Below are positions 836-47,289 of a stretch of DNA of 64,000 bases, one piece after another. The position numbers and the translations under genes were made by a program. Numbering within the stretch: the stretch's first letter is position 1; every line of letters starts with the position of its first letter. Origin of the DNA: a virus. Under the pieces are notes generated by a model. The model did not search any database, was not told the origin of the DNA, and saw only the letters and a list, made by a program, of their open reading frames with translations. The stretch is from IMG/VR virus record IMGVR_UViG_3300027843_000001, one strand, 5' to 3'.

Positions 836-2791
836 TTAGTCTTTTTTGTAAAATGGAGTAATATAACCGGCGGCGTTTAGTGGGAGTCCGGCAGCCCAAT
901 CAGGTACTATGCACATAGTTTTGCACATATCATCTAATTTAGCACTGGCCATATCGGACTCGACCTCACAAGCTACTTCATCGTGGACATGTAGAACCAT
1001 CTTGTAGTTCTTCCTATATAATCCTGCCATTGCTAAGGCCAGAAGGTCTCTTGAGATGCCTTGGATTATATTTTCGGTGAGTTTACCACCATAAGTTTCA
1101 AGGTCTTCCCATTTTTTAGTTTCTTGGTTCATGCCCTTGTAGATTACGCTGGCGTTACCAAAGCGGTTAGAACCCATTTTAGCATCTTGGTAAAACAACT
1201 TTCTTCCCGATGGCAGTTGAATTGTCATAGCCATATCGTCGCATTCAAAAAGAAGTGACCTTAATCTATAAGGCTTTTTAGATTCTACAGCCCTCTTAGC
1301 GGCTTTGTCAATGTCTGCCCACAGCTTAACTATTTTTGGATTAGCTTTTCTCCACCTGTCAACGATTATTTTCATTTCTGGTACGGACAACCCCATACGT
1401 TCACCGCCCATAGTCTTTAAGGCACCAACGGAACCTTCATATCCTAAGGCTAATTCTGCTACCTTGCCTTTTTGACGAAGTGGCGATCCTTTACCAATAG
1501 ACTCGATAGGTACCCCAAACATCATAGACGCAGAAGCCTCATATATCTTGCCATGAGTTCTAAATACGTCCAGTCTCCATTCTTCCCCCGCTAGCCAAGA
1601 CAAGACCCTTGCTTCGATAGCACTAAAATCTGCTACCGCAAAAACGTGTCCTTCCGGGGCAATAAGCGCAGTCCTTATTAGTTCAGAGAGTACGGTTGGA
1701 ATATTTCCGTACAGCATTTCTGCTAAGTCATAATCATTGTCGGATATAACGCTCCTCGCTAAATCCAAGTCCGGCATGTGGTTCTGTGGTAAATTCTGTA
1801 ACTGTATCAATCTGCCTGCCCATCGGCCAGTTCTCATTGCACCGTAGAACTGAAACAAGCCGTGCGCCCTGCTGTCTTTGCAAGCGCAAGACAGCATAGC
1901 ATTATATTTCTTCGTAGAGGATTTGGCCATAAGTGCCCGGCCTTTAAGAACATCCGAAGCAGCCCCAGCATCAATTTCTTTTAAAAGGTCTTGAACTGAA
2001 TCTTTTGCCAGTGATTGTATACTTTTTCCCGTGGCATTATTCAACCAAGCTTTTAATTGTGCGGGACTGTTCGGATTTTCTAGTCCAGTTAATTCCTTAA
2101 CTTTGCTGGAAATTTCTTCTTTAAAAATGGCATCAATGCGTACCGCGTTATTGGCCATATTAATATCAACCAATACGCCGGTATCGTTTATATGCTGATC
2201 TATTAGGTACGTTAATCTGTCAAACTCCGGTATATTATATCCTTCTAGTCTACGGCAAATCTCTCTTTCCGCTTCAACGTCATTTATGCAGTACCTTTTA
2301 AAGTCTGACCACTTTTCGAGATCGTGTTTGGGCAAATTTCTTTCCCTCATGTTGTTGGCCTTTGATGGCTTACAGGGAATGCTGAAATACCGGATAAGTG
2401 CTTTTCCTGTTGATAATTTCCCTTTCTCCTCTAATTGCATAGCTTTAGATACGCCATCCAAACTCAATGGCAGCCCACAATAAGCTGCTTTAACAGCAGA
2501 GCAGTACCACTGTTCTACAGGTACATTGAAACCATACTTTGCAAAAGACAAACGCTCAAATACGGCATTGTGCGCCCATTTTTCTATTTCGGGATCGTTC
2601 ATAGCCTCCACAAACTCTTCCGGAATAAGTTCTCCTTGCGCTAAATCTATAATCTTTATAGGCTCGTCATCCAAGGCGTAGGCTATAAGGAGTATCTCGA
2701 AATCGTCGGATTCTATATATTTATAGGCACCGCAGGATGCTATATCAGCAGAACTGAAAGTCTCTATATCAACGTGTAATTTTTTTGGCAT
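836..2791 (-). CDS. Phage DNA polymerase, family A
   Basis: Exonuclease motif LHVDIETFS, motif A ADFSAIEAR, motif B RQKGKVAELALGY, motif C LHVHDE. Probable start is MPKKL at 2791. The track's extension to 2941 runs through the tRNA-like element. Confidence 0.95.
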   Translation of the reverse strand: MPKKLHVDIETFSSADIASCGAYKYIESDDFEILLIAYALDDEPIKIIDLAQGELIPEEFVEAMNDPEIEKWAHNAVFERLSFAKYGFNVPVEQWYCSAVKAAYCGLPLSLDGVSKAMQLEEKGKLSTGKALIRYFSIPCKPSKANNMRERNLPKHDLEKWSDFKRYCINDVEAEREICRRLEGYNIPEFDRLTYLIDQHINDTGVLVDINMANNAVRIDAIFKEEISSKVKELTGLENPNSPAQLKAWLNNATGKSIQSLAKDSVQDLLKEIDAGAASDVLKGRALMAKSSTKKYNAMLSCACKDSRAHGLFQFYGAMRTGRWAGRLIQLQNLPQNHMPDLDLARSVISDNDYDLAEMLYGNIPTVLSELIRTALIAPEGHVFAVADFSAIEARVLSWLAGEEWRLDVFRTHGKIYEASASMMFGVPIESIGKGSPLRQKGKVAELALGYEGSVGALKTMGGERMGLSVPEMKIIVDRWRKANPKIVKLWADIDKAAKRAVESKKPYRLRSLLFECDDMAMTIQLPSGRKLFYQDAKMGSNRFGNASVIYKGMNQETKKWEDLETYGGKLTENIIQGISRDLLALAMAGLYRKNYKMVLHVHDEVACEVESDMASAKLDDMCKTMCIVPDWAAGLPLNAAGYITPFYKKD

Positions 2792-2810
2792 GTTTCGTGT
2801 GTATAAGTAG

Positions 2811-2903
2811 TAAGGGCGACCGGAGTCGAACCGGCACTTCCTCATTTGTCTTTTTGCATGAGTGTTAGCTGTTACAGCGTCTAACCAATTGCGCCACGCC
2901 CCT
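2811..2903 (-). ncRNA. tRNA-like RNA with non-canonical anticodon arm
   Basis: Acceptor stem AGGGGCG/CGCCCTT plus discriminator A, D arm GCG-CAATTGGTTAGA-CGC, T arm GCCGG-TTCGACT-CCGGT. The centre is CTCAT-12 nt-ATGAG preceded by 14 extra nt. No encoded CCA. Confidence 0.6.
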
Positions 2904-2946
2904 ATTTTTGAAAAGTTAAGCGGGTTTTGCCCGCTTAACAAATTGT

Positions 2947-3474
2947 TTAATCCAAGTCGTCTCCGAAATCTTCTTCGGCAGAAGAAGAACCTCCCCCGAG
3001 GCGTTCTCCATCTTCTAATTTTTGGAGGTTCTGTAAACCGGCAGCGACGCCTTTATTTCCACTCGTGTTGAAGGCAAAGAAATTTATTGACGCGCGCCCA
3101 TAGCAGCCCGAATAAAATTCGTCTTTGTCAAGTATGGCATTTAGGTTTTCATCGACCAAGCCGGGTTTGCGGGTAGAACTGGCATTGATGAAGTACGAAT
3201 TCGCGTATGTTTCATCATCCTCGCGTTCTACGTCACCATCGCGCAAAGGATTTTTATACTGCTTAGGGATTTTACCGCCAAACTTTTTGGCTTCTCCTTC
3301 TTGCAGGGCAGCTTGGATTGCCTTCTCAATTTTTGAGATTGTAACTTTATCCTTCTTGGGGATGATGATAGACACGCCATACTTTGCTTGCGAGTTGTCG
3401 TCCATTGCATGTGGTTCAAACACGTGTGCGTAGCTGAATCTTACTTTTCCTGTGATAACTTTTGTTTCTGACAT
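2947..3474 (-). CDS. Single-stranded DNA-binding protein (DUF2815 / gp2.5-like)
   Basis: VRFSYAHVFEP, NPLRDGD, FYSGCYGRASINF and DGERLGG motifs; acidic C-terminal tail. Confidence 0.9.
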   Translation of the reverse strand: MSETKVITGKVRFSYAHVFEPHAMDDNSQAKYGVSIIIPKKDKVTISKIEKAIQAALQEGEAKKFGGKIPKQYKNPLRDGDVEREDDETYANSYFINASSTRKPGLVDENLNAILDKDEFYSGCYGRASINFFAFNTSGNKGVAAGLQNLQKLEDGERLGGGSSSAEEDFGDDLD

Positions 3475-26039: not shown

Positions 26040-26789
26040 CTAAATAATAGTATAAGTACTTATTATTTTTTTTGCTATTAATTTAGCCATTTTTTTTCTA
26101 CCTGTAATAGATGGATGAAGGCCATCATATAGGTCCTGCCCTTGAGATTGCCATATTTCTAAATCTTTAACTATCCCGCTTTCGTTAGTGGCATCTATTA
26201 TAATTATGTTGTATCTATTCGCCATTAATCTTATTGCATCATATAATGACTGCAATGATTTAGGTTCAGTATCAGCTCTTTGTATAGGTAAAATAGCATA
26301 CATTATAGCTTGAGGCCAATAAATTCTTGCTTGCCAATAATTATATCTTAAAGATTCGTATAATAGTGTTTTGTCTAAATCTGTAATTAATGTTTTAGCC
26401 ATAGCTGTATCATAGCTTCCTAGTAAAGTTATTCCATCATTAGTACCTGCCGAAAAAATAATAATATTAACATCCGTCTGAGAAGATGCTTGAGATAATT
26501 GGTATGTAATTTTTTGCCAATTAGTCACTCCATCTCTATCTCTATAAGCTGCCCCAGATTTAGCATAATTAGACCAATTTGTAATCCCTAGATAAGGTAT
26601 TGCATAATTAGGCCAATTATCACGAGGATTTAAAGCTTCTGTTGTTGTTTCGGTTATACTATCGCCGAATATTATTACTTTAGCTTCTGAAAAAGTAGCC
26701 GATTTATGTAGTTCATTTGCCATATTGTTTATTTCCGTAGCTGGCAAATTATCCAAAGAATTGTATGTTTTTAACGGAATGTAACTCAT
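26040..26789 (-). CDS. SGNH/GDSL hydrolase domain protein
   Basis: GDSIT, GTND and DGLHP blocks. Confidence 0.85.
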   Translation of the reverse strand: MSYIPLKTYNSLDNLPATEINNMANELHKSATFSEAKVIIFGDSITETTTEALNPRDNWPNYAIPYLGITNWSNYAKSGAAYRDRDGVTNWQKITYQLSQASSQTDVNIIIFSAGTNDGITLLGSYDTAMAKTLITDLDKTLLYESLRYNYWQARIYWPQAIMYAILPIQRADTEPKSLQSLYDAIRLMANRYNIIIIDATNESGIVKDLEIWQSQGQDLYDGLHPSITGRKKMAKLIAKKIISTYTII

Positions 26790-27637
26790 GATAGCATAAA
26801 GTCTTTAAATTGTGTTAATCCTAGTAATCCTAAAGGTTCAAAAAAAAAATAATTGCAATATTTATTTAATAAATTTTGAACTTTATTTGATATATTCGTA
26901 CTATCTAATGTATTTGATATTAGCAAAAAATATAAATCCATATTACTATAATAAACAAGCCCTCCAGTTGCTCCTAATGTTATTTTAGATAGAGTATTTG
27001 GGGTAATAGTTTGAGAAATTGGGGTATTTGTATTTAATTGAAATCTTGAAGCACCTGAATTATTTAAAATTCTAGTAATTAAAGAATTTGATGAAATTAA
27101 AGGGCTTATTCTTGATGTAAAAGATTGGGCAGAAATATCTGGAGTAGATACTGCTTGGAATAATCTACATGTATTATTTACTTGCCCATCCATAATCGTC
27201 GATCCGTCAGACCAAGCGTTCATTTTTACGCCTATATATTGCGAAGATACTGGCATTATATTACTTGTAGATACCGTATATTTTGTTCCATCAAAAATAG
27301 CCCTTGAAATACCATTGCTTAATAAATATGTTGGTCTCTTAGTTGGTGTAGCTTGAATAAAATTTGTTGAATCGTTTAAACTATAAATGATAGATCCATC
27401 TGATTTCATTCCAAATATTTGAGGAAACACTAATATATTTATATTAGATAGTGTTTTTGAATTATAAATTTTCATTAATTCATATAAAAAGTTAGTAATT
27501 AATGATAAACTTATAGTTGTCGTGCCTTGCGATTGAATAGATTGGTATCTTTGATTAGCTAGCGATCTAGCGGCTACCATAAAAGGGTCTATTCTACCCG
27601 CCCCAATCTCATTCCCAATTTTATTTATTATCGCCAT
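26786..27637 (-). CDS. Hypothetical beta-rich protein (possible lectin-like domain)
   Basis: 283 aa, S/N/T/I-rich, very AT-rich DNA. Confidence 0.55.
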   Translation of the reverse strand: MAIINKIGNEIGAGRIDPFMVAARSLANQRYQSIQSQGTTTISLSLITNFLYELMKIYNSKTLSNINILVFPQIFGMKSDGSIIYSLNDSTNFIQATPTKRPTYLLSNGISRAIFDGTKYTVSTSNIMPVSSQYIGVKMNAWSDGSTIMDGQVNNTCRLFQAVSTPDISAQSFTSRISPLISSNSLITRILNNSGASRFQLNTNTPISQTITPNTLSKITLGATGGLVYYSNMDLYFLLISNTLDSTNISNKVQNLLNKYCNYFFFEPLGLLGLTQFKDFMLS

Positions 27638-45285: not shown

Positions 45286-46086
45286 TCATAAAGGTAAAGC
45301 AATTTTTTGAAGCAACGCCGTTGATACATGCGTGTAAATCTCCGTTGTTTTACCGCTAGAATGCCCAGCCATTTTTTGAATAATCCGCAAATCCGTTCCG
45401 CTCTCTAAAAGGCTAGTAAAGCATGAATGCCTAAGTATATGGAAATGACTGTGACTATCAATATACTTTTTAAAAATTTTCTGACAACTACCTACAGAAT
45501 ATTTTGGTTCAAACTGGCCATTAAAAAGATATTCCTTAGGCTTAAACTGCCGATAATATTCACGGAGCAATAGCAGAATGTTTTCCGATAATGGCACGAT
45601 CCTATCTTTGCGGCCTTTACCATTCTTAATAGTTATCAGCATACGTTTGCTGTCAATATCTGTGAGTTTAAGATTAACCACTTCACTTACACGCAGTCCG
45701 ACCGAAAACGCAAGCGACAGAATTGCCCTATGCTTTATGTTTTCAATTTTGTTTATCTGGTTTATAATAAAGTTTTTATCAATAACTTGCGGAAGATGCC
45801 GCTCACTACGCGGACGCTCAAACGAAACCTTATCATACTTCTTATCCAGTACCTTTTCATAAAGGAACTTGATGGCATTAATGACTTGGTTTTGTTGCGA
45901 AATGGACGTGAACTTGAAAGCATCCAAATAAGTTTGAAAGTCCGCAGCAACAATATGCTGCGGGTATTTATCCACCTTTTCGAGAAATTTAATAATATAG
46001 TGCGAGTACATGTCTCGCGTCCTCGGCGAGTAGTTTAAGTATTTAAACTTTTGTTCGCAAATCCTTAAAATTTCGTGGTGTTTCAT
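45286..46086 (-). CDS. Tyrosine recombinase, integron-integrase-like
   Basis: Catalytic R (GLRVSE), K (GKGRKDR), HxxR (HILRHS), H (AGHSS) and Y (IYTHV); N-terminal SAM-like domain (NYSPRT...YSHYI, QNQVINAIKFLYE). Confidence 0.95.
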   Translation of the reverse strand: MKHHEILRICEQKFKYLNYSPRTRDMYSHYIIKFLEKVDKYPQHIVAADFQTYLDAFKFTSISQQNQVINAIKFLYEKVLDKKYDKVSFERPRSERHLPQVIDKNFIINQINKIENIKHRAILSLAFSVGLRVSEVVNLKLTDIDSKRMLITIKNGKGRKDRIVPLSENILLLLREYYRQFKPKEYLFNGQFEPKYSVGSCQKIFKKYIDSHSHFHILRHSCFTSLLESGTDLRIIQKMAGHSSGKTTEIYTHVSTALLQKIALPL

Positions 46087-46497: not shown

Positions 46498-47121
46498 TTA
46501 GTCAATACCCAAAAAGAAGGCTCCGAGTTCACCCGAAGATATCTCTTCCTCTTTTTTAGGTTCTGATTGATTTTCTTGTGGTTGTTTAGGTTCTTCCTTT
46601 GGTGTGTTTTGAATAGCTTCAAATAGTTTCTTCATTTCACCAAGGCACATTGTAAAACCTTTTTTGTAATACCTAAACGCACGGCTCATTGAGCTTGCAG
46701 GATAAGTAATTTTATTTATCATTAATTGCCTTTTTGCAAGGTCAATAAACGTGGTTTCTCCGAGGTATATTTTTTCATGGTCAACAGCAAACATTGAAAC
46801 AGTAAAATCAAACGCCTCAATCGTTGTTTGCGGGTCTGCAAAAAACTTCTTTACAAGGTCGTAAGTACATTCTTTATATTTCATCTTGCAGCCGTTATTG
46901 CTTTCCCATTTTATTTCGCAGTCTTTTGCTTTAAAATATGTACGTGCCTTTTCGTACTCTATTTCATTTGGGAAAAACATATCGTAATCAGTTTTTACAG
47001 GCACACCCATAAAGTAATCACGTAAAGCACCGCCAGCAAGCCAACATTTTATATCAGCTTCTTTCATTTCGTTTAAAATAATCTTGCCATATCTTTGAAC
47101 GGCATTTTCAAATTGAATCAT
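46498..47121 (-). CDS. Cassette B2 gene: nucleotidyltransferase (CCA-adding / poly(A) polymerase head-like)
   Basis: LAGGALRD...DYDMFF and FDFTVSMFA motifs; probable start MIQFEN. Confidence 0.75.
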   Translation of the reverse strand: MIQFENAVQRYGKIILNEMKEADIKCWLAGGALRDYFMGVPVKTDYDMFFPNEIEYEKARTYFKAKDCEIKWESNNGCKMKYKECTYDLVKKFFADPQTTIEAFDFTVSMFAVDHEKIYLGETTFIDLAKRQLMINKITYPASSMSRAFRYYKKGFTMCLGEMKKLFEAIQNTPKEEPKQPQENQSEPKKEEEISSGELGAFFLGID

Positions 47122-47157
47122 ATCGTTTGTTATTAATAGTTTAAAAATAAAAACTGT

Positions 47158-47289
47158 GGCTAACACGGGCTCATACGCAACTGGGGTTTAAGTAGTTACG
47201 TCAAATGTACATCTTTTTTTTTACTTTGGTGTATGTTGAAAATTTAGTAGCTCCGATTCCCCAGCTGCGCATAGCCCCATCCGTTAGTG
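47158..47289 (+). mobile_element. attC-like site B2 (132 bp)
   Basis: GGCTAAC-ACGGG-CTCATACGCAACTGGGG ... CCCCAGCTGCGCATAG-CCCCATCC-GTTAGTG; unpaired C in the left arm. Confidence 0.88.

Follow-up and report, generated by a model that had tools for sequence, protein, structure and literature searches.

A tRNA-shaped element without an anticodon arm occupies a conserved slot between the SSB and DNA polymerase genes of Bacteroidota phages

We identified a non-decoding tRNA-shaped element of 93 nt in the virus record IMGVR_UViG_3300027843_000001, at positions 2811..2903 on the minus strand of a 64,000-nt stretch of its DNA (hereinafter the window). Its position between the genes for a single-stranded DNA-binding protein (SSB) and a family A DNA polymerase (PolA) is shared across a clade of PolA proteins, and sequence comparisons indicate that an old "tRNA slot" separates these two genes in a clade of Bacteroidota phages, with the element, itself probably tRNA-derived, as one of its occupants. 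The function that we prefer for it, and in which we place about half of our confidence, is that of a t-element-like RNA, tRNA-shaped and non-decoding, that would be cut from the replication transcript by host RNase P and the 3′ tRNA endonuclease.

Results

A tRNA top half with a replaced anticodon arm

Over its whole length (positions 1-71), the Rfam tRNA model (RF00005) aligned to the element, reaching 28.4 bits where the gathering score is 29 (local E = 4e-4; E = 2.3e-5 when the 71-kb genome is searched), and this was the sole tRNA-like match to that model in the 71-kb CheckV-complete virus record. The original prediction of a tRNA mimic had placed it at the correct coordinates and left its strand unstated; as it lies on the minus strand, we number it from position 1 at 2903 to the discriminator A73 at 2811. 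Read in this direction, the sequence and the Rfam alignment give an acceptor stem (5′ strand 2897..2903, 3′ strand 2812..2818) in which all seven pairs are formed (A1-U72, G2-U71 as the single G-U pair, then five G-C/C-G pairs), a D arm at 2877..2894 (3 bp and one mismatch) with a GG in its loop that pairs with the T loop, and a T arm at 2819..2835, whose 5-bp stem contains one G-U pair and whose loop is the canonical one of 7 nt. U8 and G9 (2896-2895) and the discriminator A73 were read directly from the sequence, and the bases downstream of A73 are C, U and A. These are the constituents of a canonical tRNA top half (7-bp acceptor, consensus T arm, D arm with GG, and U8), with no CCA, in agreement with the well-formed acceptor stem, D arm and T arm that had been described for it. 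The T-loop core is invariant in an alignment of relatives; the D arm is closest, and nearly identical, to those of a relative (L083) and of phage P2559Y; and bacterial tRNA-Gly and tRNA-Trp genes in many phyla share an identical 21-mer with it, which runs across T arm and acceptor.

The segment between the D and T arms is where the element departs from tRNA, with 37 nt versus 18 in tRNA (19 extra nt). In a constrained fold, the anticodon-arm replacement (2836..2876, minus strand) begins with a 7-nt linker (2876-2870) and continues as an interrupted helix, whose 3-bp and 5-bp segments are separated by a 4x2 internal loop and whose cap is a 12-nt loop (2857-2846). As originally claimed, the hairpin with the 12-nt loop, which spans 2862-2841, is preceded by 14 nt. 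The replacement has neither a 7-nt loop nor a U33 context: Rfam, ARAGORN and the constrained fold all failed to yield a canonical anticodon arm, no alternative folding gave a canonical cloverleaf with a 7-nt anticodon loop, and instead of a 5-bp anticodon stem with a 7-nt loop and U33 the sole stable hairpin is the one with the 12-nt loop. The view of the element as tRNA-shaped and non-decoding is thereby upheld. The detection scores likewise fall short of a decoding tRNA, being below 29 bits for Rfam and giving no default call for ARAGORN, which reported 0 tRNA genes in the window whether or not introns were allowed and called the element only at 80% stringency, with a model that has a 3-bp anticodon stem with mismatches.

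The unconstrained minimum free energy of the element is -26.8 kcal/mol (z = -0.65), and the cloverleaf-constrained fold, with the acceptor, D and T stems enforced, has -24.5 kcal/mol, with the middle forming the 3-bp plus 5-bp interrupted helix; the 5-bp hairpin of the middle is present in the unconstrained fold too. Folding energy alone is uninformative either way, and the case against chance is comparative and not thermodynamic. A search for close homologues of the middle found none, and the replacement helix is without covariation support of its own. Similarly, searches of GenBank phages by DNA similarity to the element returned no match, and a scan of IMG/VR with its D-arm plus T-arm pattern returned 0 matches. 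The element is also distinct from three other tRNA-related classes, namely tmRNA (none found in the window by ARAGORN), YrlA-type Y RNA (no Rfam family at its gathering threshold in the window, and ends that form an acceptor stem) and intron-containing tRNA (no Intron_gpI match in the window with Rfam, and an insertion of only 19 nt).

The SSB-PolA slot in a clade of phages

Upstream of the element lies the gene for an Enc34/gp2.5-type SSB (2947..3474, minus strand; PF10991, E = 2.5e-73; phrog_112) and downstream that for PolA (836..2791, minus strand, with its ATG at 2791; PF00476; phrog_17), after which the gene order continues with a primase-helicase. A listed ORF that runs from a TTG at 2941 through the element was rejected as an artefact, since relatives align from residue 1 of the protein that begins at ATG 2791. 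We retrieved relatives of PolA from IMG/VR and public metagenomes, scanning also the IMG/VR relatives of P2559Y and BF503P1, and found that all retrieved relatives with a PolA identity of at least 57% have a tRNA or a look-alike on the gene strand in the same place. A structure-only scan (T-loop consensus, 4-5-bp T stem and 6-7-bp acceptor on the same strand, with the end at most 250 nt from the PolA ATG) recovered an acceptor/T-arm minihelix upstream of the PolA ATG in 162 of the 176 loci of this group, for a background of 0.016 expected per locus (250 nt), and in 0 of 77 sister relatives; most of the 14 apparent misses have the element with a single deviation. The conservation that the original prediction called for is evident in these counts. 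In a quick maximum-likelihood tree of PolA the carriers formed one clade (SH-aLRT 100; 28 of 29 rows), with the non-carriers as its sister clade, and the slot is kept across PolA divergence to about 50% identity. The window element has the full set of features of this family, namely a minihelix between SSB and PolA on the same strand, C74 with no CCA, and a PolA that belongs to the carrier clade. Our literature searches found no published description of the SSB-PolA slot.

The carrier clade includes two cultured phages, the Croceibacter phage P2559Y and the Bacteroides fragilis phage BF503P1, whose GenBank records leave the slot region unannotated. The occupant in P2559Y is 88 nt long, scores 52 bits with Rfam and has a 21-nt "anticodon loop", for which ARAGORN reports a 4-nt anticodon; it retains a UGC-type loop start. 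BF503P1 and five sibling phages carry an occupant as well. When whole records were checked, all tRNA matches in P2559Y and the L189 contig fell at the slot; three others gave no tRNA match at E 0.01, their elements being too degenerate.

From the end of the element to the next ATG there are 14-42 nt in most clusters, the elements of P2559Y and L180 lying about 560-620 nt from the PolA ATG. In P2559Y, about 550 nt of unannotated, ORF-poor DNA separates the look-alike from the PolA ATG (L162:1945-2500; NC_023614 about 26784-27339), and an Rfam search of this non-coding stretch returned nothing besides the tRNA-like match; in its relatives L167 and L168, only about 20 nt lie between the two. A further arrangement was seen in L003, where three tandem non-canonical look-alikes directly follow SSB (L003:1945-2384) and a 199-aa ORF without a PHROG match (L003:2400-2999) lies between them and PolA, the third look-alike ending 15 nt before the ATG of this ORF.

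The upstream hairpin and the PolA leader

Directly after the SSB stop codon, terminator-likeness scoring picked out an 11-bp G+C-rich hairpin (2915..2939, minus strand). Its terminator-like score is on the plus strand, antisense to the genes, and on the gene strand only four U follow the stem before A-rich sequence. It is likely a terminator or a 3′-end stabilizer for the SSB message and, as a terminator, may be weak or bidirectional. Most relatives have an analogous hairpin with a T-run upstream of the element. In some lineages (L195, L188, L229, L231 and L243, about 40 nt upstream of the element, and L005:2790-2830) the opening 7-8 nt of the acceptor recur in the hairpin's 5′ arm, so that the 3′ strand of the acceptor could pair with either copy; in L211 it is the distal acceptor-like copy that pairs better (7/7 vs 6/7). 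This repeat, which is absent in the window, could have been left by a former tandem copy or could reflect an alternative fold.

On the other side of the element, a 19-nt AU-rich leader without a Shine-Dalgarno (SD) sequence leads to the PolA ATG (2792..2810, minus strand); its first base, at 2810, is C74, and the next is U. An SD core occurs in 0 of 63 unique PolA leaders of the carrier clade, where the mean A+T content is 81%, compared with 33 of 53 leaders in the sister relatives. The SD-less AU-rich leaders, taken with the two cultured members, fit Bacteroidota hosts.

Occupants change while the acceptor and T arm persist

The occupants of the slot fall into 28 sequence-distinct, mutually unalignable clusters, and only about three of the 28 look decodable. 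ARAGORN accepted four of them with a 3-nt anticodon (Ser-GCU, Gln-UUG, Arg-UCG with a weak D arm, and an odd Ser-ACU) and made calls with a 2- or 4-nt "anticodon" for 11 of 78 unique sequences, the rest receiving no call. A 46-nt form, found in a group of 36-kb human-gut phages, is reduced to the acceptor and T arm with a 14-nt linker; a 57-nt form has the acceptor, D and T arms, with an 8-nt linker and no anticodon arm; and other forms, with long inserts, are of 160 nt. Some phages carry two or three look-alikes in tandem.

All 28 clusters keep 6-7 of the 7 acceptor pairs and 4-5 of the 5 T pairs. U8 is found in 23 and A73 in 20 of them, and C74 is present in every one, with the next base never being C. 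The tRNA genes of two Bacteroidota genomes (the MAGs G004 and G005, reached through L264 and L293) read N73, C74 and then a non-C base in 31 of 35 distinct genes, a 3′ context that may characterize tRNA 3′ maturation in the whole phylum. From the occurrence of the C74 pattern in both the occupants and the host-type tRNA genes, we infer that the look-alikes keep the 3′ context of host tRNA genes even where their anticodon arm has been lost altogether.

Conservation within clusters points to an RNA structure in the relatives. Across the 46-nt form (70 unique copies), its stems and a GG in the linker are near invariant, with variation in the 3′ spacer and at three positions of the linker. For one lineage of gut Bacteroides phages, RNAalifold recovered three helices (acceptor, T arm and an 8-bp "replacement" helix), and seven pairs distributed over them are kept through two-sided changes. 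Covariation across homologues, a check proposed along with the original prediction, is hence seen as compensatory changes in this one relative lineage; the window's own middle has no close homologue in which it could be read. A loop motif shared across occupants (CAUU-type or GAC-containing) was also considered and found unconvincing, as remnants of the D loop explain most of the matches.

The turnover of occupants is best seen in three close relatives, L002, L005 and L083, which differ by 0.02-0.035 changes per PolA column, with flanking coding DNA that is 87-95% identical and a near-identical hairpin and spacer. These near-identical phages carry unalignable occupants, namely a tRNA-Ser in L002, a 161-nt look-alike in L005 and a 117-nt look-alike in L083. 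In a similar vein, one identical gut-phage scaffold carries three unalignable middles. The slot is thus old, with a rapid replacement of what it holds.

Two further features of individual occupants were noted. A G3:U70 pair together with A73, which is the alanine identity set, occurs in five clusters (L162:1857-1944; L166; L181:1086-1169 and its cluster; L085:440-521; and L003:2309-2384), and within clusters the G3:U70 pair is kept while neighboring pairs covary. Judged by sequence, these occupants might be charged by alanyl-tRNA synthetase (AlaRS). In the cluster of L181:1086-1169 (8 unique sequences), a perfect 10-bp palindrome lies in the middle of the second tandem look-alike; the pair of bases at its center varies jointly (TA to CG), which preserves the palindrome.

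Discussion

A candidate processing signal in the replication transcript

The conserved parts of the occupants (acceptor, T arm, elbow, A73 and C74) are those read by the enzymes that mature tRNA ends, and it is on this that we base the processing reading. The parts under selection would accordingly be those on which RNase P, the CCA-adding enzyme and the tRNA 3′ endonuclease act, the decoding part being dispensable. The window element itself is a non-canonical cloverleaf that has the T-arm consensus (GGTTCRANYCC) and an acceptor stem, and the fixed spacing of 14-42 nt to the ATG, together with the host-type C74 trailer, lends indirect support to a predicted cleavage at the ends of the element. 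In the excision scheme that we infer for the SSB-PolA transcript, the element would be transcribed within the SSB-PolA replication message, and RNase P would cut at its 5′ end, leaving an SSB message that ends in the upstream hairpin (2939-2915). An RNase Z-type tRNA 3′ endonuclease would then cut after A73/C74 and release a PolA message with an AU-rich leader of about 19 nt and no SD sequence; the excised tRNA-shaped RNA would be a stable by-product that may receive CCA.

The original prediction had offered three roles for a non-decoding RNA at this site, of which a processing signal in the replication transcript is the best fit to the 28 occupants, given that what they conserve are the parts used in tRNA-end maturation. 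The element is unlikely to act as an anticodon-nuclease decoy, the anticodon region being precisely the part that is not conserved and that is absent in the 46-nt and 57-nt relatives; the third role, an intron-like form, fares no better for reasons given below. It had also been proposed that a nucleotidyltransferase encoded elsewhere in the window could act on the element. The corresponding ORF (46498-47166, minus strand, 222 aa) does match phrog_1614 (E = 7e-12), but its match to PF01743 (CCA-adding/poly(A) polymerase head domain) is below threshold at 17.9 bits, and a search for a relative in the PDB found none. A homologue is present in the B. fragilis phage BF503P1 and absent from four other carrier genomes; with just one of five element-bearing genomes having it, there is no obligate coupling to the element, and the proposed link is weak.

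Alternative explanations

Certain observations run against punctuation of the message as the purpose of the element. Some relatives have tandem look-alikes, though one would suffice; the elements of P2559Y and L180 are far from the PolA ATG; and much of the transcription may end at the upstream hairpin, without reaching the element. The unalignable occupants of near-identical phages and the three middles on one scaffold hint that the middle, or the RNA itself, is selected. The main alternative, built on such a view and considered by us somewhat unlikely, is a trans-acting small RNA on a tRNA scaffold, in which the top half would serve only excision and stability and the variable middle would be the working part, for instance as a protein-binding decoy or aptamer in phage-host or phage-phage conflict. 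The near-identical flanks around unalignable occupants in L002, L005 and L083, the three unrelated middles on one identical scaffold, the pairing of the middle helix kept via compensatory changes and the tandem copies all speak for it. However, the 46-nt and 57-nt forms, with linkers of 14 and 8 nt, are without cargo; no convincing motif is shared across the middles; the conserved slot and distance to the ATG are not needed by a trans-acting gene; and in an exact-complement search the best complement of the window's middle in its own genome is 12 nt, vs 10-14 nt for shuffled sequences. A version of this that we deem quite unlikely posits a fast-swapping family of carrier RNAs at the SSB-PolA slot, excised and CCA-tailed by the host, of which either the middle or, in certain members, an aminoacylatable acceptor (G3:U70, A73) would act in trans, for example as a sponge for host defense factors that attack the acceptor ends or elbows of tRNAs. 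Such carriers would account for the unrelated occupants in near-identical phages.

That the element is a decaying tRNA pseudogene with no present function is improbable: the slot of a few relatives does hold a tRNA that could decode (Ser-GCU, Gln-UUG and perhaps Arg-UCG), and the top half of the window element resembles tRNA-Gly and tRNA-Trp genes, but under neutral decay the anticodon arm would be hit no more often than C74, the acceptor and the T arm, and the 28 independent occupants keep the acceptor, the T pairs and C74. Moreover, conservation is higher within the 46-nt form than in the 3′ spacer behind it, and the slot is kept down to about 50% PolA identity. We regard as very improbable a role at the DNA level, whether in integration, with the element as the attP core for a host tRNA gene, or in replication, where it would be an origin or a priming structure of the PolA replisome. 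In favor of such a role, copies of tRNA 3′ halves are common in phage attP sites, the element lies within the replication module, and about 550 nt of non-coding DNA adjoin the P2559Y element; yet both acceptor strands are present and covary, indicating RNA structure, and the element is always on the gene strand. An attP core would be expected beside an integrase and with a block of 3′ identity to the tRNA of a single host, neither of which we found. The only tyrosine recombinase (45286-46086, minus strand, 266 aa; its best NCBIfam models, XerA/integron-integrase, are all below their cut-offs) is about 42 kb away, and the 21-mer matches tRNA-Gly genes of many unrelated phyla and not one host, its scan against bacterial genomes giving no host or attP signal and only generic tRNA-Gly/tRNA-Trp genes. 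This recombinase adjoins cassette arrays. Least credible of all, and hardly to be entertained, is that the element still decodes as a tRNA, either with an intron in it or with an enlarged anticodon loop. With introns allowed, ARAGORN at its default threshold does call the L005 occupant as Glu with a 69-nt intron and that of L083 as Phe with a 27-nt intron, and it calls the window element at 80% stringency, but these models work only with anticodon stems that are mismatched or of 3 bp and with introns at non-canonical positions. The introns of bacterial tRNAs belong to group I and are longer than 200 nt, for which 19 extra nt are too few; no Rfam intron family was matched, and several relatives are without any anticodon arm. 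The broken anticodon stems, the short insertion and the missing intron family likewise make the intron-like form among the originally offered roles unlikely.

Significance and comparison with known systems

If the processing reading is true, a large and partly cultured clade of Bacteroidota phages, which spans abundant human-gut phages, B. fragilis phages and a marine Flavobacteriia phage, would punctuate its replication-gene message via the tRNA-maturation enzymes of the host. Punctuation of mRNA by tRNA is documented for organelles, and in the literature that we searched we found no description of it in phages. With SD-less, AU-rich leaders, formation of a 5′ end near the start codon would be a plausible lever on the dosage of the polymerase. 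For annotation, such elements are missed or miscalled by tRNA finders, as illustrated by the GenBank records of P2559Y and BF503P1, which are blank at this place. The fast turnover of occupants at a fixed slot further raises the question of whether the excised RNA has a part of its own in phage-host conflict.

Several known systems bear comparison with the element. Like the bacterial Y RNA YrlA, it is a non-decoding RNA with tRNA-like T and D arms, and YrlA too is often phage-encoded; however, the 5′ and 3′ ends of YrlA lie on its Ro-binding helix, opposite the acceptor-like end, whereas those of the element form a normal acceptor stem. The species 1 and 2 RNAs of phage T4 (rnaC and rnaD), annotated as small stable RNAs of unknown function beside tRNA genes, are likewise phage-encoded, and rnaC ends in a canonical T arm as the element does. 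Unlike the element, the T4 RNAs sit in a tRNA cluster and not before a polymerase gene, and their acceptor pairing is only 5/7. Bacterial operons are also known that co-transcribe tRNA genes with mRNAs (e.g., thrU-tyrU-glyT-thrT-tufB of E. coli), and RNase P cleaves operon mRNAs. As in the tufB-type operons, a tRNA-shaped unit here would precede a protein gene in one transcript, and there it is the tRNA-processing enzymes that separate the two; but the tRNAs of those operons decode, while the decoding arm of the element is dispensable and mostly gone.

The t-elements of plant mitochondria are non-canonical cloverleaves with a conserved T-arm consensus and an acceptor stem (Forner et al., 2007; PMC1920247). 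Their cleavage by RNase P and RNase Z makes the 5′ and 3′ ends of mRNAs and releases a small RNA with partial CCA (PMC1920247). The element shares with them the T-arm consensus, the acceptor stem and a position directly beside protein-coding genes. It differs in belonging to a phage of bacteria and not to an organelle, and in occupying a single conserved slot of the replication module with a fast turnover of occupants; its cleavage is predicted, whereas that of t-elements is documented. We regard the t-element as the closest documented analogue of the predicted processing signal between SSB and PolA.
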